A stretch of 64,000 nt of DNA from a virus. Taxonomy: Duplodnaviria; Caudoviricetes. Every line of letters begins with the position of its first letter. The first letter of the stretch is position 1. The notes below the pieces were generated by a model. That model worked only from the letters and a program-made list of their open reading frames with translations. It was not told the DNA's origin and searched no databases. Location of the stretch: IMG/VR virus record IMGVR_UViG_3300017651_000001, positions 3,937 to 67,936 of that record; one strand, given 5' to 3'. Positions 21,168 to 58,603 of the stretch are shown here, in pieces. The position numbers and the translations under genes are program-made.

Positions 21168-21749
21168 TTACGCCTCCAGCTCGCGGGGGCCGAGTGCGGC
21201 CTTGGGGATGAAGTCCATCTGGATCTTCTGCTTCGATCCGTCTTCGTGGATCGCGAGCGGCCAGTCCGTGTGGACGTAGTAGGTGTAGACCTCCTGGTCG
21301 GCGTCGAACGCCTCGGCGGAGTCGAACCCGACCCGGTGGATGATGATGTACGGCACGTCGGCTGTGAACGTGAGGTTCTTCCACAGGACGTACACGCTGT
21401 CGGTCGCCGCAGGGTTCGCGTCACGGAAGCCCTGCATCGACGCCTCGAAATTGAAGTCCGTCAGTTCGGTCGAGTTGCCGGGCTCGCAGAGCGAGCGCTC
21501 GTCGTCCTCAGTCGAGTCGGTCATGCGGAGGTTGAAGTTGTCCGACACGAGCGCGCAGGTCACGTTGCCGCCGGCGCCCGCATTCGCGTGCCCGGTCGAG
21601 GTGACGACCGCGTAGTGGTTGATGTGGCTGGACTCCAGCTCATCCCAGGGGACGAGTCCGACGCCGGGGATAACGGCATTGGGGACTCCGCCGACTTCGT
21701 GAGCGGGAAGCAGGACGACTGCCTCGTTGGTGTTGTCAATCCTCGCCAT
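21168..21749 (-). CDS. Major tail protein (second paralog)
   Basis: NVTCAL, DERSLC, FRD, IIHRVG typical of actinophage tail tubes. Confidence 0.75.
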   Translation of the reverse strand: MARIDNTNEAVVLLPAHEVGGVPNAVIPGVGLVPWDELESSHINHYAVVTSTGHANAGAGGNVTCALVSDNFNLRMTDSTEDDERSLCEPGNSTELTDFNFEASMQGFRDANPAATDSVYVLWKNLTFTADVPYIIIHRVGFDSAEAFDADQEVYTYYVHTDWPLAIHEDGSKQKIQMDFIPKAALGPRELEA

Positions 21750-21948
21750 CGGCGGGCTCCTCTGTCTTGGATTCGGACTGCGCCGCGATCGCCTTTTCGA
21801 TGACGGCCTTGGCGATGGGTGCGTATGCGAGCGGCTTGGCGCCGTCGGCAACCTCGACGAGGTTCGGGTCAGCGGCGGCGACGCGCGGGTGGAGACGCTG
21901 GGTACGCCCGGTCAGCCGGTGTCGGTACGTCTTCCACGCGAGACTCAT
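21736..21948 (-). CDS. Small hypothetical protein
   Basis: Leaderless-type promoter upstream; overlaps the tail tube start. Confidence 0.6.
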   Translation of the reverse strand: MSLAWKTYRHRLTGRTQRLHPRVAAADPNLVEVADGAKPLAYAPIAKAVIEKAIAAQSESKTEEPADGED

Positions 21949-27111: not shown

Positions 27112-28125
27112 GTGGCGTGGACTCAACAACTCCCCTCGGGAAACTGGCGCGGCCTGTATCGCGGCCCGGACGGCAAGACCCGCTCAGCAGGCACGCATCC
27201 GCACAAGGCGAAAGCGCTCGCCCTTGCGATCGAGCAGGAGGAGCGTGCCAGCCTGCCTGGCTGGCGCGACCCTCGGGCCGCCGGGCGGAAATGGGGCGAC
27301 TGGTGCGACGTGTGGTGGGAGACGCGGAACGTGGCGCCGGGGACGATGAAGCGCGACCAGTCGCCGCTCGAGAGGCATATCAAGCCGTACTGGCGCGACA
27401 AGCCGCTCGCCGACATCACCCGGCATGACGTGAAGGCGTGGGCGGCGCGCATGCGCCGCGAGGGCCTCGCCGAGTCCAGCGTGCTCCGCTACGTCAGCAT
27501 ATTCTCCGCCTCACTGACGGCCGCCGTTGACGCCGAGATACTGTCGGCTAACCCGGCGATGCGGCTGAAGCTGCCGAACGGCGAAGTGGATGTAATGCGG
27601 TTCCTCACCCGCAAGGAGGTGAAGAAGATCCTCCGCGCGACACAGGACGACCGCGACAAGGCGATAATCTCGACCCTGGTCGGGTGCGGGCTCCGCTGGG
27701 GCGAGATGGCCGGCCTCCAGGCGAAGCGAGTCGACATGAAGGCGGGCATGATCCGTGTCGCCGAGACCTGGGACTCCCGCAACCGACAACTCAAGCGCTA
27801 CCCGAAGGGTCGCCGCATCCGCGACGTGCCTCTGCCGCCGAACGTCGCCGAGCGGCTCGAACCGTACCTCTCTCGGCCGATCCTGTTCGAGGGGGTCGAC
27901 ATCGACAACTGGCGCAAGCGGGTCTGGGACGACCTGCCGACCGATGCGCGCATCCACGATCTGCGGCACACCTACGCCTCCTGGCTCCTCCAGAAGGGCG
28001 TCGGCCTGGCTGAGGTTGGACGGCTCCTCGGGCACGCCTCGCCGTCCACCACGCAGCGCTACGCCTTCCTGGCGGAAACGCCGAAGAAGGCGGTCCTGGA
28101 GGCCATCGGAGACCTCGGTGTGTAG
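27112..28125 (+). CDS. int: Tyrosine integrase
   Basis: GLRWGE, HDLRH, LLGH, TQRY catalytic residues. Confidence 0.95.
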   Translation: MAWTQQLPSGNWRGLYRGPDGKTRSAGTHPHKAKALALAIEQEERASLPGWRDPRAAGRKWGDWCDVWWETRNVAPGTMKRDQSPLERHIKPYWRDKPLADITRHDVKAWAARMRREGLAESSVLRYVSIFSASLTAAVDAEILSANPAMRLKLPNGEVDVMRFLTRKEVKKILRATQDDRDKAIISTLVGCGLRWGEMAGLQAKRVDMKAGMIRVAETWDSRNRQLKRYPKGRRIRDVPLPPNVAERLEPYLSRPILFEGVDIDNWRKRVWDDLPTDARIHDLRHTYASWLLQKGVGLAEVGRLLGHASPSTTQRYAFLAETPKKAVLEAIGDLGV

Positions 28126-28368
28126 CAGAACGTGTAGCGGCGAGGCGCGACACGCCGCAACTTGGATTGTTGACTCATGCTCGGTGCGACCTCGCGAAGC
28201 CGCGTAATCACGCGGATCATGCCCGCTTTTCCACCCGACTCAACAAGAGTGAACATGCCGGTATCTCGTTCGCAATGAGAAGGTCAGGGGTTCGAATCCC
28301 CTCAGGTCCACCGGAAAATCAAGGGCTCCCCGTCACTGGGGAGCCCTTCGTGTAGCAGGCGTGTAGCG
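28120..28368 (+). other. attP: core is the 3' half of tRNA-Ala(CGC) at 28264-28312, flanked by paired arm-type repeats GTGTAGC
   Basis: TCTCG-TTCGCAA-TGAGA anticodon arm, AGGGG-TTCGAAT-CCCCT T arm; GTGTAGCAG..CGTGTAGCG at 28120-28139 and 28350-28368. Confidence 0.9.
28321..28348. terminator. Hairpin terminator after the attP core
   Basis: AAGGGCTCCCC/GGGGAGCCCTT. Confidence 0.75.
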
Positions 28369-36371: not shown

Positions 36372-37898
36372 CTACGTGATCGTGTCATCCCGCGTATCCC
36401 GCGGTGCGTCTCCGCCATTCCCGCTGGACCGACCCTGAGTCGGAGCACCTGCCGAGCCGGTGGGGCCGCCATCCGTGTCGATATCCTTGCGGGCGAGCGA
36501 CTTGATGTTGTTCGGCATGAGCATCCCCTGGGGCGTGTCGCCGAGCGACGGGATACCGAGGATGTCGGCCGCCATGCCCTTGTAGACCTCATCGCTGATG
36601 ACGCCCTGGAGCCAGATGAGCGTGATCGCCTGGAGCTGGCGGTAGATCTCGGTGCCGTCCTCGTAGGGCTCGAAGTACGCCTCGAACTCACCGTTCGGGT
36701 CCATCCACCTGAGCACGCGCTCGTCGAGGGCGATGTCCTCGTCGCGACGGGTCATCATCGTCAGGCGGCCCGGCTCGTCGAGCGTGGCGGCCGAGCCGTA
36801 GGACGAGCCCGCGTCGGCGGTGTTGCTGGTGAGCGCGATCGTCGACACGTCCAGCGAGGTTGCCACCATCGCGATGACGCCCCGGATGTGGCTGAAGTCG
36901 TAGCCCTTGCCTGCCGAGGAGAGCACGGACAGGTCGGTGCCGACACCCATGATGGCGGTGCCGCCGGCGCTCTGCGGGCTGGCGAACTGCACCGCAGCGT
37001 TCTGCCCGGCGGCCTTGCTGGCGGCGTTCACCTTGAACGCGAGCGTCGCCATCGCGCTCGAGACATCCACGCCGTCCATGTAGAGGTTCTTGACGATATC
37101 GGCCCAGATCCAGGCGGCGAGTGCGTCGGGGATGCCGAAAGGCCAGTTGTCGAACGAGTTGGCGTGCATGTCGAACGCCGTCATCGACGTGTCGACTTTC
37201 TCCTCCTCGTTGCCCCAATGAATCGTCTCGACGGCCATGTCCTTGGCATGGTCGACGAAGTACCACTTCACGAAGTCCTTGTACTTGCCGTCACGCTGGC
37301 GCTGCGACCAGGCGCGACGATAGGCCCAGACGACGCCGGGGAAGTCGGGGTCGGTGAGGATGCCGGTGATCTGGTCGAGCGGGATCGGGTAGAGCTTCTT
37401 CGTCTTGTCGTCGCCGATCCACAGGCGGATGCCCTCGGTGTAGAGGCACAGGTGACGCTCGCGGCGCGCGTTCTTGCCGAAGAAGTTGCGCTGGTTAACC
37501 GGGTCGAGGATCTTCTCCTTGACGCGGGGCGCACGGCCGCGATTGTCCGCCGGAGGCTCGCCGTTGAGTCCAGGGACACCCTTGTACTTGATGCCGCCGC
37601 CCTTCTCGACGTAGGCGTGCTGGAGTTTGAAGCCGCGCTTGCCGAGCGGATTCGCGGCGGCGAACTCGCGGAGCTTCGCCGACCAGACCTTCAGTTCATT
37701 GAGCTCCATCCCCTTGACGGGGGCGCCGTTACCGCCCTGGAAGATCTCCCAGCCCTGGTCCTCGCGGGCGAGCATCGCCATCACGTTGTCGAGGGCCTCT
37801 TTCACGATCGGGTTCGCACCCGCCTGGGCCTGCGACTGGGACTGAGCGAGGAGCATTGCTTCGGCCAGTTCGCGGACCATGCGCTTATCGGAGACCAT
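36372..37898 (-). CDS. Portal protein
   Basis: 508 aa directly after the terminase gene; FGIPDA. Confidence 0.8.
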   Translation of the reverse strand: MVSDKRMVRELAEAMLLAQSQSQAQAGANPIVKEALDNVMAMLAREDQGWEIFQGGNGAPVKGMELNELKVWSAKLREFAAANPLGKRGFKLQHAYVEKGGGIKYKGVPGLNGEPPADNRGRAPRVKEKILDPVNQRNFFGKNARRERHLCLYTEGIRLWIGDDKTKKLYPIPLDQITGILTDPDFPGVVWAYRRAWSQRQRDGKYKDFVKWYFVDHAKDMAVETIHWGNEEEKVDTSMTAFDMHANSFDNWPFGIPDALAAWIWADIVKNLYMDGVDVSSAMATLAFKVNAASKAAGQNAAVQFASPQSAGGTAIMGVGTDLSVLSSAGKGYDFSHIRGVIAMVATSLDVSTIALTSNTADAGSSYGSAATLDEPGRLTMMTRRDEDIALDERVLRWMDPNGEFEAYFEPYEDGTEIYRQLQAITLIWLQGVISDEVYKGMAADILGIPSLGDTPQGMLMPNNIKSLARKDIDTDGGPTGSAGAPTQGRSSGNGGDAPRDTRDDTIT

Positions 37899-37927: not shown

Positions 37928-39631
37928 CTAAACCGGCATCCCCGGCCGATTTCGCCGCTCGAACGCGATCTGGCGCGGGTCCACCGGGATGATCTCGCCG
38001 GGCTTGAGTCGTCCGAGAGGACTGTTGACCAGGGGGGACGTGTCGATCACGGCGTAGATGAGAGCGTCGAGTCGGTCGGGAGACCCATGCATCTCGCTGC
38101 GCATCTCCTTCTTGGGTGTGATCTTGATGGCTCCCTTGTTGTTCAGCTCGTAGGTGACGGCGAGCAACTGGTCGCGAAGAGCCAAGTCATCGTAGTCGAT
38201 ATCGAGTGCGCCTTCGCGCAGCAGTTCCCGCAGGTAGTCGTGGTTCTGATCTCGGACAACCTGCCAGCGGTGCGTGTCCGCGCTCGTGTTGCCTCCCAGC
38301 ACACGGAGGACGACGTATGGCCGCGGGTGAAACTCGTCGAGTCGCTGAAGCATCGCGGCGATGCCAGAGCCCATGCCTGATGCGTCCACACGGACTTCTG
38401 TCGCGCCGAGGTGCATGGCTATCGCATGGACGCGGCGCGCGCTGGTCAGCTCGTCCTCCTTGGACCATGTTCCCGTCGTGGTGCGCGTCTCGCCGCCGTC
38501 CTCGTAGGCCACGGTACCATCGAAGACGCGGCACCGGCCGCCCTTGTTGACCATGACAACCGACTCGTCATCGCCCATGCCCGCCAGGTCGACGCCGAGG
38601 ATGACCGGGGCGCCGGCGATCTGCTCCAGGTCGAAATCCCGCTCGCGCGCTGCGTCGACATACTCCTCGGGGAAGAACGAGCGGTCGTCCTCGCTGGGGA
38701 ACTCGCCGAGGACCTTCGCCTTGAACCGCGCGTCCGGGCGCCCATTGAGGTTGCGCTCGAGACCCAGTTCGGAGTCGAACGTGATGTCGCCGCCGACCTT
38801 CCAGACGCGCTCTTTGTGGGCAATCCACTTCGCGCTCGTGAGGCCCTTGAGCATGGCCTCCTGCTTCTCGGGCTCGCCTGGGTAGACTATCTCGCCGGTC
38901 ATGGTCGGCAAGTCGTAGGCGGAGATGGTGAACAGGTTCCACTCGGCTCCTTGGCGCTTGTCCGAGAACAGCGTGTGGAACGGCGTGGCGCGGTGGTCAG
39001 GGTTGCCGATGCCGACCCAGCGGGACTCCTGCCCTGTCAGGACTGCCTCTGCGGCCGTGAAGAGATCCTGCGGCATGCCGCCCATCTCGTCGAACCCGAC
39101 GAACGTGCGGCGCTTACGGGTTCCCTGGAAAGAGGAAACGATGTCCGAATCCGCGGGGCGCTTACCGAACGCGATGGCCTCCTTGCCCGCGCCATCCGGC
39201 TTGGTGTAGTTCCAGGAAAGCTGCTCGTCAATCCAGCCGATTGGAGCCGGGCCGAGGCCCGCCTTCGCTTGCTTGGCGAGGTAGCCGTAGTTGTCCTTGA
39301 GGTACTTGAAAACGACTCGCTGGATCTGGTCTCGGCCATTTGCCGAGAAGATCGCCAGTGACTCCTCCGGGGGGAAAGCGGTGACCCACCACGTCCCGAT
39401 ATCGGAGAGGATAAAGGATTTCCCGCATCCGTTCGCCGACTTGACTGCGGTACGAGTCTTCGGTGCATCCTCGCGAGTGATCGTCACCGCGATGTCCTGC
39501 ATCTTCTCGTAGTAACGTCGGCCCAGGACATCGGCCGCCCAGGCAAGGTAGTCGCGCTGGTAGAGAGACTTCTTCGATCGTGCGGCAATCTCATTCATAG
39601 CCGCCTCGAAGACGGTGGGGTCAAGGTTCAC
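37928..39631 (-). CDS. terL: Terminase large subunit
   Basis: SANGCGKS, FDEMGG, IGNP, GVDLAG, SPDRLDAL. Confidence 0.95.
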   Translation of the reverse strand: MNLDPTVFEAAMNEIAARSKKSLYQRDYLAWAADVLGRRYYEKMQDIAVTITREDAPKTRTAVKSANGCGKSFILSDIGTWWVTAFPPEESLAIFSANGRDQIQRVVFKYLKDNYGYLAKQAKAGLGPAPIGWIDEQLSWNYTKPDGAGKEAIAFGKRPADSDIVSSFQGTRKRRTFVGFDEMGGMPQDLFTAAEAVLTGQESRWVGIGNPDHRATPFHTLFSDKRQGAEWNLFTISAYDLPTMTGEIVYPGEPEKQEAMLKGLTSAKWIAHKERVWKVGGDITFDSELGLERNLNGRPDARFKAKVLGEFPSEDDRSFFPEEYVDAARERDFDLEQIAGAPVILGVDLAGMGDDESVVMVNKGGRCRVFDGTVAYEDGGETRTTTGTWSKEDELTSARRVHAIAMHLGATEVRVDASGMGSGIAAMLQRLDEFHPRPYVVLRVLGGNTSADTHRWQVVRDQNHDYLRELLREGALDIDYDDLALRDQLLAVTYELNNKGAIKITPKKEMRSEMHGSPDRLDALIYAVIDTSPLVNSPLGRLKPGEIIPVDPRQIAFERRNRPGMPV

Positions 39632-39633
39632 CG

Positions 39634-40131
39634 CTACTCCTCGATCTGCTTGGCCTGGATCTCCTGCCATGCGAGGGCCATCGCGTCCTGAACAAGCTCG
39701 TCCCACCTCTGGGGGTCGACCTCCTCGCGAAGCGCGCCCTTCATGTAGGTAAGAGCCAGGTCGACGACGTGTCCGAGTTGGCGACCGACGTTCTGGTTGT
39801 ACGTCTCGAGATCTTGCTGGCTGGCGCTGTGTCGCTGCTTCACTCGATCGCCAAGGATCTTGAGGAGTTGGATCTGCACCTTCGCGTTGCCGAGATCCAT
39901 GAACTGCTCTTCGAGCTTGTTAAGGATGCGGCCGAGTTTCCAGGTGACGAGCGCATCCTGCTGCGCGAGCGTGAGCCAGTCGTGGCTCTGGAGAAGCATC
40001 TCGATGTTGGCCGCCACGCGAGCGGGGGAGATGACGCCGCCGAGTTCTCGGCTGATCTCCTCAGGAGAGTGCGTCGCCGCGAGCAGAAGCATCTTCTCGT
40101 CGAGCTTCGAACGTGCGATCTCCGTGGCCAT
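39634..40131 (-). CDS. Terminase small subunit (probable)
   Basis: HTH N-terminus (SPEEISREL); directly upstream of terL. Confidence 0.65.
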   Translation of the reverse strand: MATEIARSKLDEKMLLLAATHSPEEISRELGGVISPARVAANIEMLLQSHDWLTLAQQDALVTWKLGRILNKLEEQFMDLGNAKVQIQLLKILGDRVKQRHSASQQDLETYNQNVGRQLGHVVDLALTYMKGALREEVDPQRWDELVQDAMALAWQEIQAKQIEE

Positions 40132-40283
40132 ACCTCCAGTTTAGTGTCGGGAAAGCAACGACAGTGGGTATCCTGGACTTCGGGGGGTCGCAACCACCCC
40201 TCCCGTGTGGGAGCCATACCGCACAGCCCAGGTGGCAGGAGTCCCGTGGATAGCGCATCCACGGGACTCCCACCATTCGAGGG

Positions 40284-40496
40284 CTACTCGTCAGCGAGGA
40301 GGGCCAGCCACTTTGAATGGAAGCAGGTGGGGCAGAGGATTCCGCCCGCTTCACGGCTCGCGTCACCGCCAACAATGAGATTCCATGTCGCCGTGTCGGC
40401 CCACCAGATTGGATTCCTCCGCCCGCACTGCTGGCAGCGCGTGTCCCCATCCTCGGGGCGCCAGGGGCGCGGGATGTGTGCCCTAGTCTCCGCCAT
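40284..40496 (-). CDS. Small zinc-finger protein
   Basis: CQQC...LCPTC. Confidence 0.6.
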   Translation of the reverse strand: MAETRAHIPRPWRPEDGDTRCQQCGRRNPIWWADTATWNLIVGGDASREAGGILCPTCFHSKWLALLADE

Positions 40497-40544
40497 ACCC
40501 CCAGTTTAGTTTGCAATCCACGCAATTAGGGCTTATCCTGAATG

Positions 40545-40620
40545 CACCGACTCCTTCATCGGTAAGTGAGCACCTCCCTAGTGCAAAGACCCCCGCGGCC
40601 CTAATCCGCGGGGGTCTTCA
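40545..40620 (+). ncRNA. Candidate small antisense RNA with two anti-SD loops
   Basis: TTGCAA-N17-TATCCT promoter (40511-40539), two stem-loops, terminator 40586-40618, no ORF on this strand. Confidence 0.55.
40586..40618. terminator. Bidirectional intrinsic terminator
   Basis: AAGACCCCCGCGG/CCGCGGGGGTCTT. Confidence 0.8.
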
Positions 40621-40630
40621 CTGTTGAAGG

Positions 40631-42067
40631 CTACTTCTTCGCCGTCGAGCGGGCCTTGGCTCGGCTCTTCGACTGCTTCGCGACCTCCTCGATCGCCTGG
40701 CGCTCTTCGACCTCGATGAGCGTCGTGTCGTGACTCGGCGCGAAGTCGATGCCTTCGTCCTCATCGACCGGCGCCGGGGGTGCTGGCACCGGGTCGGCAT
40801 AAACGGCGGGGTACGCCTCCGCACCGAGAACCGCCCAGTCCCAGATCCGCTGCGACAGTGCCACGATGTCCTGACGGCGCCCGTTGGGGCCGGTTGATCC
40901 CAGGTTGAACGTCTCCGCCGGCGTCTGCGTCCACCAGATCGAATTCTCGTGGACGGGCACGCTGACGTGCTTGGCGAGCACCTCGAAGAACTGCTCGACC
41001 TGCTTCTCGCTCCAGGCGTGGTTGTCACGCAGCTCGGCGTAGGTTCCGGCGAGGATGCGCAGGAACAGCGGCGAGCCGAGGATGGAGATCTGGCGCAGCC
41101 GGTCGGGCGTGAGGAGTCCGTCGATGATCGCTTGGAACTGCGGGAACGCTCGCACCAGGATGTCGAAGAACGTGGTGGTCTTGTTCGCGACCTCCACTTC
41201 GTTCATCTCGCGCTCCATCGCCTTGCCGAAGCGGCCCTCGATGCCGAGGTTGGAGGCGCGGATGATCTCAATGACGTGCCGCGCGGACAGCAGGTACGGC
41301 CCGGTTCGGCCGAGGCGGTCGTTCTCCGGGTCGATCCGGTTGAGCAGGAGCGGGTGCTCGGCGACCAGCACGAAGGCCCGGTTGGCGACCTTACGCTTGT
41401 CGAAGCGCGCCTTCACCGACGCGGAGATGCCCAGCGCGTTGTCGGCGATGTCGAAGAACATCTGACGGTACGAGTTGAGGTCGTCGGTGATGTGAACCTC
41501 GACGGCGACGCGCTCGGCGTAGAAGCGGTCCTGCTTGGCCTCGATCTCCTTGATCGCGCGCTCGGCGTCCTTGATGACCTTGGAGCCCTTGTCCTCGGTG
41601 CGGCGGGCTCGGTTCAGGTGGTCGAGCGCCTTCTGCCGCTCCGTCTCGAGCATCTCCAATGCGAGGTGGAAGCCGAGGATGCGGTGCTGCCCGTCGAGGA
41701 TCTGGATGTCGCCCTGCTTGCGCTTCGGGTAGGAGAGCACGCCGAATTGCGCACTGTTGTCCAGCACGTCGAGGTCAGTTGCGAAGTCGAAGATCGCCGG
41801 GGCTCGCAGGATGAGGCCGGGGATCACCCAGTTCTCGTGCTCGAGGTAGTACTTCGCGAACGATTGAGCATGGTTCAATCGGATCTGCCGGTTGCCGGGG
41901 TTCGGAGCTGCGGGGTTCGGGCGAAGGATGTTGTTGATGATCTCCGCAGGCGTGAGCGCCACGAGGTAGACCGTGCGACCGCCTTGCCGGTATCGGGTTG
42001 CGTAGAACTGCTCATCCGTCGAGTAGGCCGCGATCGGCGCGACCTTCGGCGCAGTTTCAGTGGTCAT
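40631..42067 (-). CDS. DGQHR-domain (DndB/ParB-like) protein
   Basis: GNRQI, IQILDGQHR, QMFFDIADN. Confidence 0.85.
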   Translation of the reverse strand: MTTETAPKVAPIAAYSTDEQFYATRYRQGGRTVYLVALTPAEIINNILRPNPAAPNPGNRQIRLNHAQSFAKYYLEHENWVIPGLILRAPAIFDFATDLDVLDNSAQFGVLSYPKRKQGDIQILDGQHRILGFHLALEMLETERQKALDHLNRARRTEDKGSKVIKDAERAIKEIEAKQDRFYAERVAVEVHITDDLNSYRQMFFDIADNALGISASVKARFDKRKVANRAFVLVAEHPLLLNRIDPENDRLGRTGPYLLSARHVIEIIRASNLGIEGRFGKAMEREMNEVEVANKTTTFFDILVRAFPQFQAIIDGLLTPDRLRQISILGSPLFLRILAGTYAELRDNHAWSEKQVEQFFEVLAKHVSVPVHENSIWWTQTPAETFNLGSTGPNGRRQDIVALSQRIWDWAVLGAEAYPAVYADPVPAPPAPVDEDEGIDFAPSHDTTLIEVEERQAIEEVAKQSKSRAKARSTAKK

Positions 42068-42257
42068 GGTTAGCCCTTTCCCAGATCGGGTAGTGGACTA
42101 AATATGTACCACGGGCGGAGGGTGCGGGGCAAGTACCTACAACGTGCGAAACGAATGCTTGACAATGAGAAAGTTCTCACTGACTCTTGATGTCGGGGGC
42201 ACGCTCTAGCATCTGTGACCCTCAGCAACACACGGAACAACACGCGAAACGGGGGTC

Positions 42258-42497
42258 GTGACTATGACTGTCAGGGTGAAAGAGTTCGACGGTCGGAGGT
42301 CGCTCGAGATCGAATGCAAGGATGGCGTCGTCTACATCGACGACGGCCGCAAGTGCTACGGACTCGATGCGGGTATCTTCCTCCATGCCGTCGAACGCGA
42401 ACTGGGGGTAATGCTGCTGCGGAATGCGTTCCAGATCGCGGCGAAGCCATGCGGGGGCTCCCCAGCCGCCTGCATGGGCACTCCCAGTGCGAACTGA
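42258..42497 (+). CDS. Small hypothetical protein in opposite orientation to its neighbours
   Basis: TTGACA at 42159; hairpin at about 42502-42540. Confidence 0.45.
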   Translation: MTMTVRVKEFDGRRSLEIECKDGVVYIDDGRKCYGLDAGIFLHAVERELGVMLLRNAFQIAAKPCGGSPAACMGTPSAN

Positions 42498-50924: not shown

Positions 50925-53900
50925 ATGGCGAACATGATTACACCGGTTCTTGACCTTGGCGCGCCCGCGCGCGAGCGCGTCGCGCGCATGGCGCAGCTCG
51001 AGCGCGAGTACGAGCGCCGCGCGCACCACGGGCGCGCGTGCCTGAACCCGACGTATTGCGCCGCTAGCGGCGGCGTAGGCGCAGGATGCCGCAACACGCA
51101 CACCCGGAAGGACTGACACCATGCGCACTCGCTATGCACTCGCGACCCTGGCGGTCGGTATCGCCGGCGCCGCTATCGGCGTAGGCGCGACCCTCGCGCT
51201 GACGCCCGCGCCTGTCGCGCCCGCGCCGATCGTGCATGTGGCCGAGCCTGCCACGCCCGCGCCCACGGCGACGCCTGCGGACACGGCATGCCGTGACGCT
51301 GTTGACCTGCTGATCGGCATGCACGACACGGCGCATGCCGAGCTTGTCAACGTCATCCTTGCGGACCTGTACGCCGGTACGCCGCGTGACTGGTCCGACT
51401 ATGAGGCCATGCGCGCACAGCTCGGCAGTGACGCTGAGGCGAACGTCTGGCCTGTCGTGCGGGCTTGCCTGGACACTCACTGACACGTCAACCGATAGCC
51501 ACTAGGGAAGGGCACATCATGGAAATCCAGGTCACACTCACGGGACGCGAGACCATCGATGCGCGCGTCTACATTGACCACGGCATCAACACAAGCGTCG
51601 CCTACGGACTCGCATTCAACGATGACGGCGATGTCGTCGCGGAAACCGACTCGACTCGCTACGGCGGATTCTGTGAGGCGGAGATTGTCTATCACGAGTT
51701 GCACAGACTCATCGCCTGGCGATGGGGGATCGAGTCGGGGGACATCGCCGACGCGCTCGACATGCGCGGCATCATGTGCGACTGCGAAGAGGGCTAGCCA
51801 TGCTCACGCGAATTGCCCACTACCTCGCGTCGCACCTGACGCGCGCCGGCCGCGAGCGACGCCGCTACGCACAGGCGATCATCACCGCATGCGTCGCACG
51901 CTTCGCAGATCCGATCCACTAGGTACACATATAGGCCAATAGGGAAGGCTGGACAATGACCAACCACGACAGCAACGCCGCGCCGCGCGCGTGGGCCGAC
52001 GGGTTCGGCCTCTGGCACGCGGAAGTCCCTGCGACGCATCCGCACCCCGCTACGCTCGCGCGACGCCTCATCCGCCACGAGCTGACCGCACACGGAGAGG
52101 CCAAGCAGGGCTATCGGCTCAAGCTCGACCAGCGCGAGCCCTACACGCCCGGCATGCTCCACTACAAGGAACGATGACCATACCCTCTGAGCGGCCCGCG
52201 AGCGCGCGCCTCAGCGACTCTCGCGGCGGTTCAGTAGGCATGGCCTACTCAAACCATGACAAGCCACTAGAGAGGGGCGATCACGATGCCCTGGCATATC
52301 CTCATCTTCACACTCGCGACACTGGCGACGCTCACGCTGCTGCTTCTCTTTATCAAAGGCGCCTCACGACACATCCACGTCACCGACACCTACGCCGGCC
52401 TTACAGCCTGCCGAGAGTGCGGTCGAATCATCCGCGACGACGCCTCAGAGGACGATTCCCAGCGAACGTCCAGACACCCGAGAGTGTAAACCTGTGTTAC
52501 AAGCAAAACCCGCGGAATCATGCGGAACTTGCTTCGCGAGCCCCTAGAGCATGAAAAGTACCCTAGATTACTGAACTATCAGACTATCTATATGTCTACT
52601 AGGGTATTAGACACTCTAGATACTCTCAGACCTACTTCCGCGGAAAATCAACGATCTAGGTTGTAACATCGGTTTACACTTTTGGCCCTCAGAGCCTAGA
52701 CAACTGAACAGTCCGACTTTTTTTCAGTCGGAACGTCTAGACTTTCCGCCTAGACTTTCCGACCGCCAAAACAGTCCGACAGTCCACTAGTCCGATTGGA
52801 GCATCATGCCGAATCTCGACCGTATCGCCCTCGAAACGCTCACACGCCTCGCGGCAGAGCGGGCGGAGCTGGAAGCACGCCTGAGGGCGAATCTCGACGC
52901 CACGCGCGCAGAGGTCCGCACAGGCTCACGCGCCGGCGTAGCGCTCGCCAAGCTCGCCCGCGCCGCGGGAGTCTCGCGCGTTACGGCGTATCGCTGGCTC
53001 GCGGATTGACTGAACAGCCGACACACGAAAGGATCGCGACCATGAACACTGAGAACCTGCCCTACCGCGTTGAGTACCGATTTCCGAACGGCGAGACAAT
53101 CCACGTCGCCGCATTCGCGAGATGGGACGATGCCCAATGGTTCGCAAGGCGCGACGATGAGGCCGTTGGAGCTTCCTACGCTGATGAAGAGTGTCCCGAG
53201 GTCGTCGTTATCGACACGGCGCAGGGTGCCGAGGACATCGTTACGGAGCGTCGCCAGGCTTGGGAGTAAGCCTGTAAACCCCTTGACAGACAACTGAACA
53301 GTCCACTAATCTAGGCAGTACGAGATAGCCACTAGGGAGGCAATCGAGATGAACATCCAGAACTTGATCGAGGAAGCGCGCTGGCTGCGCTCCGTCGAAG
53401 GCGAGAACCCAGAGTACGATCGCGCACTGGTGGAGCTGGTGGCCGCGTTCCTGCCCGGTGAGAACGAAGAGCGCTACGGGTATCTGTACCCCGTGATTCT
53501 CGATCGCCCGATGCCGGCCTAACCCCCACAAAGTCGAAACGCCGCGAGGCGTCGCTAGGACACCGGCACCCCTGGCCTGATGAGACAGCCGACTAAATCG
53601 CCAGACACGCCACTAGGGAGGGCAATCATGGCAAGGTACGAAACCCACAAGCGAACGTCGCAGGGCAAGGCCCGCACGATCGCACGCAACACGGCCCGCG
53701 CGCTCAAGTATCAGCAGCCGGCGCGCGTCACGACCGCCGGGAGGGCTGCGCGGTGAAGTTCTCACTGGAAATCAAGCTGGGCAACGACGCGAACGGGAAT
53801 CGCGTCGGACAGTGGCGCGTGACCAAGAATGGGGAGGGCTGAGCGATGGGACTCTACCGATACAGCGCGACCGTCAACGGCAAGCGCCGCTCCGTGATGT

Positions 53901-56900: not shown

Positions 56901-58603
56901 TGGCGATGCTGAACTACGCGGCAGGGTGGGCGGCGGCATGACAAATCGCAAACTCGCGCTGCCGGTGAGCATCGGCTGGGCGCTTATCACCGTCGCCGGT
57001 CTCGGCTGGTGGCTCTACTGCATGGCTGGATGAAGGAGGAGAGAGATGACCCATTCAGAATGGCGTGACGCCTACGAGGCGGCGCGAGCGAGGCTTGAGC
57101 CCTGGCTGAGCCGCGACGACGACGGGCAGGTGTGGATCGACATCAACGCGCCCGGCCCGCTGGTGAAGATCTACGTTCAGTTGCAGGAGTTCGGCCTGGA
57201 GCGGGAGTGGCTGCGGCTGGGCGACGAGGCGGGGGAGGCGGCATGACCCTCAGAATCGGAGACCGCGTGACGTTCACACCTGCGGCGCGTGACCTGTTCC
57301 CCGAGGCGCGCGGGCATGGCGTGCTCACCGTCGAGGCCGTGTGGCTCTACGGGAATGTCGGCCTGTCGAACGGGCGGCTCTGGAATCGGGCGTGGCTGGA
57401 GAAGGTGGAATGACGGGCTACCTCTGGCTGGCCGCACTCATCGGCGGCGGGATCGGCCTGGCTCCAATCGTTGTGGGAGAGCTCGGACTCCTCATCCACA
57501 AAATCCGCAACAACAGGAAGGGACAAGAACAATGGGAGACATCGGAAAGCCGTTGAAGCACATCGAGCTGGAGCCGCTGGAGGTTCCGCACGAGGCGCCG
57601 GTGCCGGCGGAGCAGCCGTCGGTGCCGGCGGAGGAGCCGGTGCCGGCATGAATCCGCAATACTGGCACTACGACCCGCCCTACGGCTACGACTATGCGGC
57701 TCAGGTCGCACGACTCAAGGCTGCTGCGGCACAGGTCAAGTCCGCGCCTGCAAAGCCCAAGGTGGATCAGTTCGCCGGCGTGACCGCGGAGTTCGCGGCG
57801 GGTGTTGTGACGGGTACGCGCTCGTTCAGTGTGGACAGGCTGGGCCGCCTCACGGGTGTCACCTACAAGAAGGTCTGGCGCCCCGGCGAGAACGTCGCGA
57901 AGTGCTACCGGAGTGAGGACCACTACCACGCCTTGCTCGGCGGCATCACGATTCGGACCAGCGGGATTGAGCGCACCGACGAGCACGCGATGACCGAGTG
58001 CGACCACGGCTTCTACGCCTACTACGAGGGGTCGAACGACTTCTACGAGGAGGGTCGCATCATGGGCGTCATCGAGGGCTACGGCGAGACGCTGATCGGC
58101 ACGCGGGGCTTCCGGGCCTCGAAGGCGCGGATCGTGGCGCTGCACATCCCGGAGGGCGTGGAGGTTGCCAAGCGCCGCCTCGTCTTGCGGAACTACCCAG
58201 ACATCCCACAGTTCGACTCGTTCGAGGCGATGGTCGAGGCGTTCCCGCCCGATGACGCCGGTCAGGGGATCAACCCGGCGAACGACCCTGACTTCTGGGA
58301 GCGGGAGGCGTGACTGTCATGACCCTCCCCGCCCCGACGTGCATTGAGGAGCGCATCTGGGATGCGCTGAACCTGCACCCCGGCCTGACCGGCCAGCAGC
58401 GCCTCGCGATCTACACGGCGATCACGGCGAAGAGCGCCGATATCGCAGGCTGCGCCTGGGTGTCGGTGTGGACGGCGCGACTCAAGACTGGCAACACGCT
58501 GCGTCATGCGGTGGTGCGCCACAATCCGGGCGTCATGCCCATGACCATGCCGTCGGACGTTCACATCTTGACGGCGCTTGAGAAGGAAGGTACAGAGCAA
58601 TGA
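50925..58603 (+). CDS. Early region of more than 20 small hypothetical ORFs
   Basis: Coupled ORFs; several preceded by a CACTAGGGA(A/G)G-type RBS motif. Confidence 0.6.
52483..52800. other. AT-rich non-coding region with nested inverted and direct repeats (putative replication origin)
   Basis: AGTGTAAACCnnTGTTACAA IR (52483-52502 / 52661-52680), TACCCTAG IR, CTAGACTTTCCG x2, ACAGTCCGAC x2. Confidence 0.55.
52806..53009 (+). CDS. Small HTH DNA-binding protein
   Basis: ALAKLARAAGVSRVTAYRWL. Confidence 0.8.
   Translation: MPNLDRIALETLTRLAAERAELEARLRANLDATRAEVRTGSRAGVALAKLARAAGVSRVTAYRWLAD
53283..53312 (+). promoter_or_regulatory. SigA-like promoter TTGACA-N18-TAATCT with an operator variant CAGTCCACTA
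   Basis: Perfect -35 box. Confidence 0.75.
53533..53591 (+). ncRNA. Type II hammerhead ribozyme
   Basis: GTC-GAA-ACGCC(GCGA)GGCGT-C-GCTAGG(loop)CCTGGC-CTGATGA-GAC: all core nucleotides and three stems present. Confidence 0.85.

Follow-up and report, generated by a model that had tools for sequence, protein, structure and literature searches.

Several RNA systems resemble the locus analysed here. The c4 RNA of phages P1 and P7 silences through loop-borne sequences around the ribosome-binding site (RBS), alongside protein repressors (PMC12197685); it targets the ant (antirepressor) mRNA and is a substrate of RNase P (PMC5499578). The P4 CI RNA is processed from the very transcript that it controls, with transcription termination at the flanking seqA and seqC (PMC4825925, PMC5499578). 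Outside phages, the actinobacterial 6C sRNA (RF01066) carries C-rich loops and binds several mRNAs without Hfq (PMC6486639), while YUNR U-turns are known from plasmid antisense systems that pair loop to loop and are cis-encoded, fully complementary, and single-target (PMC4485353). The sRNAs of PAK_P3 were proposed to act in trans, with single 11-nt phage matches (PMC4933390). Finally, the start-associated sequences (SAS), described for mycobacteriophages of cluster K and for Microbacterium phages of cluster EF, are an unusually conserved extended RBS motif ahead of some non-structural genes, the role of which was called unclear (PMC7302621). The searched part of the review PMC12197685 gave no hit for Streptomyces, mycobacteria, or actinobacteria, and a literature search with most subscription journals outside its scope returned no paper on an RNA of the present kind in Microbacterium phages.

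The locus lies in a 64-kb window, i.e., the whole stretch of DNA analysed, taken from a circular phage record (G000) of 67,936 bases whose ends overlap by 123 bases, and would encode a small RNA in which the loop of one hairpin (SL2) mirrors a sequence tag at early-gene RBSs. Like c4, it is a predicted temperate-phage RNA with loop-borne complementarity to the RBS region; unlike c4, it would address 4–6 separate, unannotated small early ORFs 11–25 kb away that share a tag hairpin, and no antirepressor was identified. The C4 covariance model (RF01695) gave no match at the gathering threshold or at E-values up to 10, and 0 matches in the whole of G000, a search in which the controls also gave none. 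Like P4 CI, it is a small phage RNA with more than one pairing site that would hold down lytic genes; unlike P4 CI, it would be made from a predicted promoter of its own and act on distant RBSs, and its gene faces away from its neighbours. A survey of all matches of at least 8 nt to the RNA in G000 found the tag copies distant, not flanking. Whereas 6C is chromosomal, with long C-runs and host targets, the seed here is a mixed, phage-private tag of 7–11 nt; RF01066 had 0 matches in G000, in a search in which its control matched in 1 of 14 genomes.

The resemblance to SAS lies on the target side, where a conserved extended RBS motif precedes non-structural genes (four of the five CACTAGGGA copies fall in early RBS windows). 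SAS, however, has ~10 or more copies and an upstream ESAS motif, while the present tag differs in sequence, has 4–6 copies, and has one mirrored copy in a predicted RNA loop; upstream of the tags lies a palindrome that about 30 untagged sites have as well. As in plasmid loop-loop antisense systems, complementary hairpin loops with a YUNR-type CUAG occur on both partners, but the present RNA would act in trans, on several targets, and through only 7–12 bp. Features expected of a trans-acting sRNA are found in the sequence, namely its own predicted promoter and terminator, a conserved seed, and seed-target covariation.

The phage and the predicted RNA element

By its terminase, the nearest isolated phage is Clavibacter phage CN1A (53.5% identity), which has tRNA genes and no such RNA element at the syntenic place; among isolated phages, neither blastn with 39600–42100 nor tblastn with the DndB-like protein encoded beside the element (Table 1) found a match. 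The phage is temperate, because it has an integrase, adjoined by an Xis-like helix-turn-helix gene, and a tRNA-Ala-like attP candidate. Its relatives are proviruses and are also found within Microbacterium chromosomes, which, together with the attP-like tRNA-Ala match, makes Microbacterium the likely host. Elsewhere in the window, a tRNA-Asp(GTC) gene lies at 114–186 upstream of the primase gene, and an AT-rich non-coding stretch with an inverted repeat around the early region (52480–52800) is a possible origin or packaging site. Many late genes (39634–40131, 36372–37898, 21736–21948, and others) appear leaderless, with a TAnnnT box 5–7 nt before the ATG and no Shine-Dalgarno sequence. Gene starts came from a home-made caller, and two starts were added by hand for the RBS rankings.

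Table 1. Coordinates of features of the element, its candidate targets, and the phage
Feature	Position	Strand	Remarks
Predicted sigma-A promoter	40511..40539	+	-35 TTGCAA 40511-40516, 17-nt spacer, -10 TATCCT 40534-40539
Predicted small RNA, about 75-80 nt	40545..40622	+	From fold; ends inferred
SL1, C/U-rich anti-Shine-Dalgarno hairpin	40546..40563	+	Likely generic helper
SL2, seed hairpin	40570..40584	+	Loop with TCCCTAG, mirror of early-gene tag
Terminator hairpin, likely bidirectional	40586..40618	.	Would end minus-strand DndB-like mRNA and plus-strand RNA
-10 box, leaderless promoter of 70-aa ORF	40503..40508	-	Copy at 40138-40143 serves small terminase gene
70-aa CxxC...CxxC ORF	40284..40496	-	Optional insert; separate from RNA
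478-aa DndB-like (DGQHR) protein	40631..42067	-	PF14072 E 3.9e-25; operator-like palindrome 42091-42100
Tagged RBS hairpin, ORF 53349	53328..53341	+	11-nt perfect complement; rank 6 of 121
Tagged RBS hairpin, ORF 53628	53609..53623	+	11-nt perfect complement; rank 4 of 121
Tagged RBS hairpin, ORF 51519	51498..51513	+	9-nt perfect complement; rank 8 of 121; net -10.0 kcal/mol
Degenerate tagged RBS hairpin, ORF 52286	52263..52278	+	Rank 18 of 121; net -4.9 kcal/mol; weak predicted target
Degenerate tagged RBS hairpin, ORF 51956	51934..51950	+	Rank 88 of 121; net 0.0 kcal/mol; probably no target
RBS of ORF 57046	57029..57038	+	10-nt SL1 match, 16.4 kb from RNA; rank 25 of 121
Basic 42-aa peptide gene	53628..53756	+	Conserved; cognate tag on its orthologue in G001, G014
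Tyrosine integrase	27112-28125	+	PF00589 E 4.8e-24
tRNA-Ala-like attP candidate	about 28266-28313	+	90-96% match to tRNA-Ala(CGC), 3/3 Microbacterium-genus genomes searched

The element is flanked by two minus-strand genes, the DndB-like gene and that of the small terminase, and in this genome the optional insert comes between it and the latter. A preliminary description of this DNA had read a promoter, two stem-loops, and a terminator here, running against the surrounding genes; we confirmed every coordinate, and the genes around the element are indeed on the minus strand while the RNA would be on the plus strand, its promoter standing back-to-back with a minus-strand leaderless promoter. A strict promoter/terminator scan reported neither the RNA promoter nor its terminator. 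The whole RNA folds with z = −5.46, which is owed to the terminator, and the two 5′ hairpins alone are no more stable than shuffles (z = −1.24). In Rfam, no family matches the predicted RNA (the weak hits being terminator-shaped noise), and the loci of five relatives gave no hit. The terminator loop CCCTAAT resembles a decayed copy of the seed. Next to the element, the optional insert (40127–40511) is bordered by a near-identical direct repeat, through which the leaderless promoter is present twice, and contains a strong hairpin at ~40236–40275; it is missing from some compost strains, in which X4 joints skip 40104–40493 and the RNA element is kept. Its 70-aa ORF has no PHROG or Pfam hit.

Close strains, i.e., contigs from three of four runs (X4, X8, and X13) aligned to 40470–40680, vary around these features. 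In X8 and X13, 6 of the 17 spacer bases are changed (X8 also has one changed −35 base), with no listed change in 40534–40626 and one difference in each unlisted. In X4 record 3, the −10 box is shifted toward consensus, the 17-nt spacer is kept via one insertion and one deletion, and the SL1 loop is changed with its stem kept; SL2 has no listed change, while 4 of 10 substitutions, near contig ends, are unlisted, so a change in its 3′ arm is possible.

Tagged early-gene RBSs in the phage genome

The preliminary description had claimed that SL2 is the reverse complement of RBS motifs 11–13 kb away, exactly at two sites and nearly so at three. The exact pairing holds, as CCTCCCTAGTG is the reverse complement of CACTAGGGAGG at 53330 and 53611, and the distances measure 10.9–13.0 kb; of the near-matches, 51500 stands with 9 nt, and those at 52265 and 51936 are only degenerate. 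A further 12-nt match lies beyond the window (G000:C1:1739) and precedes the first gene after a promoter; the tagged ORF 53349 is the first gene after an operator-promoter. These sequences are rare by chance. CACTAGGGAGG was observed 4 times in G000 against 0.006–0.016 expected and CACTAGGGA 5 times in the 68-kb genome against 0.05–0.17 expected (both with Markov orders 2–4), and the latter is the top 9-mer common to G000 RBS windows, its copies being four early-gene RBSs and the SL2 loop. Perfect matches to the RNA of at least 11 nt occur in 3 of 121 RBS windows (shuffle mean 0.09; 2 of 2000 shuffles reach 3) and those of at least 10 nt in 5 (shuffle mean 0.33; 1 of 2000 reaches 5). With the GGAGG core fixed, six random bases would agree with the one extension common to three RBSs with a probability of 1.7e-4.

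The same description had also paired SL1 with the RBS of ORF 57046, and this finds no support beyond a generic anti-Shine-Dalgarno match: GATGAAGGAG is near chance, with 3 copies observed against 0.3–0.6 expected and one of them inside a gene.

With the whole RNA and both partners' opening costs counted, the four best-tagged sites rank 3, 4, 6, and 8 of 121 at net −9 to −13 kcal/mol, and two untagged RBSs (46851 and 57648) rank above tagged sites. The first of these, on the minus strand, has a 10-nt perfect match to the anti-Shine-Dalgarno half of SL2 and the best rank in the genome, and may be an extra target in the left arm.

The tag is also set in a common geometry. Of 14 tagged sites, 11 hold the tag inside the loop of a small hairpin with a stem of at least 3 bp; the corresponding figure for other GGA-bearing RBSs is 33 of 274, and none of 20,000 flank permutations reached 11 tagged hairpins. 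The loops are 8–10 nt and the stems 3–5 bp, with stem sequences that differ between phages; the stems are weak (−1 to −7 kcal/mol), and the sites of any one genome, having a shared ancestry, are not independent. Such tags in hairpin loops with varied stems suggest loop-loop pairing, and both seed loop and tag loop contain CUAG, fitting the YUNR U-turn motif. The most consistently tagged target is the 53628 peptide, which has 40–42 residues and a TxxGRAR-like end in five genomes; it falls in no named family, and all scores in an Atlas search were under 0.9.

Loop and tag in distant relatives

We examined 26 DndB-like loci, 24 of which have the syntenic terminator, with a plus-strand TAnnnT box upstream in 10 of these. 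The tag is mirrored in a loop at only four of the 26 (the window copy, L018, L019, and L173), and all four have a TAnnnT box 24–56 nt before the terminator and a C/U-rich first hairpin. In L018 and L019, TCCCTAG is the terminator loop and the stems are different; in the L018 record, CTAGGGA occurs three times in forward orientation, each time ahead of an ATG in the early region, and the L019 record is too short to show targets. Five elements, when aligned, have 52% identity and carry the seed in different hairpins.

The fourth locus, L173 (genome G014), is a prophage of the Microbacterium sp. M chromosome with the terminator loop TTCCTAG. There, ACTAGGAA has 5 copies in 80 kb against 0.12 expected, four before an ATG on the early strand and one in the loop, and ACTAGGGA is absent from the prophage; one of these tags precedes the orthologue of window gene 53628. 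Across the 4.0-Mb chromosome, ACTAGGRA-N3-12-ATG occurs 4 times, all within the prophage; the tag precedes an ATG twice in one further genome of the Microbacterium genus and once in another. Covariation of loop and RBS motif, which the preliminary description had named as a check on its reading, appears in G014, where both have changed, and is not seen in L047 and G003, which have no mirrored loop in the syntenic element: L047 has one ACTAGGGAG RBS, without a stem, and G003 a 4-copy RBS tag. The element of L047, L189, and L190 keeps a plus-strand promoter and terminator, with a predicted RNA that is G-rich rather than C-rich, and the G003 element likewise bears a promoter.

Ranked by the seed hairpin, own-phage tags take 4 of the top 5 of 119 places in G000, ranks 1 and 2 of 122 in G014, and ranks 1, 2, and 4 of 56 in G001, a ranking that speaks to specificity and not to independent discovery, as the seeds were picked with the tags known. 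Swapping the seeds of G000 and G014 weakened pairing by ~4–16 kcal/mol at most sites. With whole RNAs the relatives fare less well. The G001 RNA has no perfect match of at least 9 nt, and with opening costs its own tags rank only 21, 31, and 35 of 56, while the shuffle test for G014 showed no significant excess, with 5 against 5.2 for matches of 8 nt and 2 against 1.4 for those of 9 nt. In G005 (L033), a hairpin mirrors ACCCAGGAGG at several RBSs, with 7 windows at 9 nt against 1.4 and rank 4 of 99 for the first gene at the syntenic position; this mirror is no more than suggestive, because that RBS form is common (L047, G006, and G012). The second loop, TCCCCAG, has no RBS complement.

Candidate repressor, timing, and competing readings

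The complementarity and rarity of the tag, the conservation of promoter boxes and seed, the joint change in G014, and the tag hairpins make it probable, in our judgement, that a conserved unit makes an ~80-nt RNA that pairs loop-to-loop with tagged early RBSs and blocks their translation, atop a predicted repressor. The multi-target antisense RNA first proposed for this locus is supported, as far as sequence goes, by conservation, by loop/tag covariation with G014, and by the ranking of cognate seeds. A host sigma-A promoter would yield the plus-strand RNA, the first kissing contact would join the UCCCUAG loop to the ACUAGGGA loop, and the duplex would extend to 9–12 bp across the Shine-Dalgarno sequence, so that ribosomes would be kept from loading at the genes that come first on early transcripts and these genes would be repressed, with SL1 likely a generic anti-Shine-Dalgarno helper.

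The first proposal had the RNA possibly replacing a protein repressor, and this part finds no support. The operator-like palindrome TAG-Y-S-S-R-CTA has 38 matches with at most one mismatch, at early and late promoters and some inside genes (e.g., 27065, 42091, 52780, 53299, and 53586), with a 3′ half that reaches into the −10 box, and it may resemble KorB operators. The DndB-like protein encoded next to the RNA is a candidate repressor that may bind it: the lone DndB-like gene is conserved in proviruses of the group, with an operator upstream, and no classical CI-type repressor was seen among the ORFs scanned. When its model (pLDDT 80.6, pTM 0.48) was used in a fold search, nothing matched at E ≤ 0.001; BrxU, SspE, and ParB appeared as weak rows only. 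Furthermore, the tag marks only 4–6 of the 121 RBSs, and operator-led first genes, taken as a set, are not enriched for RNA matches (p = 0.51). The RNA would therefore probably act in addition to the predicted protein repressor and not in its place. A small plus-strand ORF (42264–42497), which diverges from the DndB-like gene and has no Pfam hit, contains a (K/R)EFDG motif conserved in G005, G014, and L047.

Timing is the weakest step. We lean only slightly toward an RNA that is produced in the lysogen as well as from the onset of infection, and that would silence leaky early transcripts until induction out-titrates it, over a purely lytic shut-off. Expression in the lysogen is likely for G000 because its RNA promoter has no operator: 40480–40560 contains none with up to two mismatches, the best has three, and no good one lies nearer than 42091. 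In L019, L033, L047, and L173, by contrast, the RNA promoter and an operator-like site overlap, in the register that early promoters show; this suits expression in the lytic phase better than in the lysogen. An RNA that pairs with the tags and serves purely as a lytic timer, shutting off the earliest genes after derepression with no role in lysogeny or immunity, is a timing variant that we count within the pairing reading and regard as rather unlikely; the operator-free promoter of G000 tells against it, and a repressor bound near the −35 could also activate.

Improbable, though the main rival, is a phage RNA-binding protein (a translational repressor or an antiterminator) that reads the tag hairpin in sense, the DndB-like mRNA copy being a site or decoy and the plus-strand mirror incidental. 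It likewise predicts loop/tag covariation and tags in hairpin loops with varied stems; in L018, L019, and L173 the tag lies in sense within the terminator loop of the DndB-like mRNA, and all five CACTAGGGA copies in G000 are oriented with local gene transcription. In G000, however, the sense copy is located past the minus-strand terminator but ahead of the next −10, outside every predicted minus-strand transcript, and such a protein leaves unexplained the plus-strand −10 box and C/U-rich first hairpin at all four tag-loop loci and the spacer-only variation of close strains; no candidate RNA-binding protein was found among the ORFs scanned.

We give still less credence to a generic RNA, acting either in cis, as an antisense of the DndB-like mRNA at its 3′ end, or broadly, as an anti-Shine-Dalgarno RNA against mRNAs of host and phage, with the tag match secondary. 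The overlap with the shared terminator would suit such an RNA, as would the C-rich elements of L020, L174, L079, and L187, for which no mirrored tag was found, and the similar best energies of non-cognate RNAs on any of these genomes, but it does not explain why the tag is nearly absent from host genomes (the 11-mer in 0 of 5) or why loop and tag changed jointly from G to A.

Least probable, and poorly tenable in our view, is an ordinary terminator with the relic RBS of a mini-ORF, or a stray piece of DNA operator, and no functional RNA, for although an 8-codon minus-strand ORF (MKESVHSG, named in the preliminary description as the alternative source of the motif) starts at 40559, CACTA is common to the tag and the G000 operator, and the 5′ hairpins alone are not significant, the mini-ORF has a Shine-Dalgarno-to-ATG spacing of 13 nt against 5–10 at real sites and its frame is shifted in X4 record 3 by a 1-nt deletion at 40554, and the tag is no by-product of the operator, since G014 has a different, 13-bp palindrome (G001, G005, G012, G013, and L047 share the G000 type) yet keeps the ACTAGG tag and its mirror. 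A scan of viral contigs with the SL2 15-mer gave five hits, one a copy of the same phage and four unrelated, and an operator-plus-tag scan gave 31 hits, only one of them related.

To our knowledge, the phage RNAs that regulate phage genes are mostly confined to a single operon each. Returning to the pairing reading, we tentatively propose that a family of Microbacterium prophage RNAs reads small hairpins, each with a Shine-Dalgarno sequence and a private tag in its loop, by plasmid-style kissing, but in trans and at several genes, that drift of loop and tag (GGGA vs GGAA) gives phage-specific RNA immunity, and that SAS may be sRNA addresses. If true, several distant genes addressed via a tagged RBS hairpin would constitute a compact, RNA-only regulon, and the start-associated motifs of actinobacteriophages would gain a testable function. 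The G014 prophage, residing in a completely sequenced Microbacterium chromosome, would supply natural alleles for comparing cognate with swapped pairs, and an orthogonal, chaperone-free loop-tag pair could serve actinobacterial genetics.
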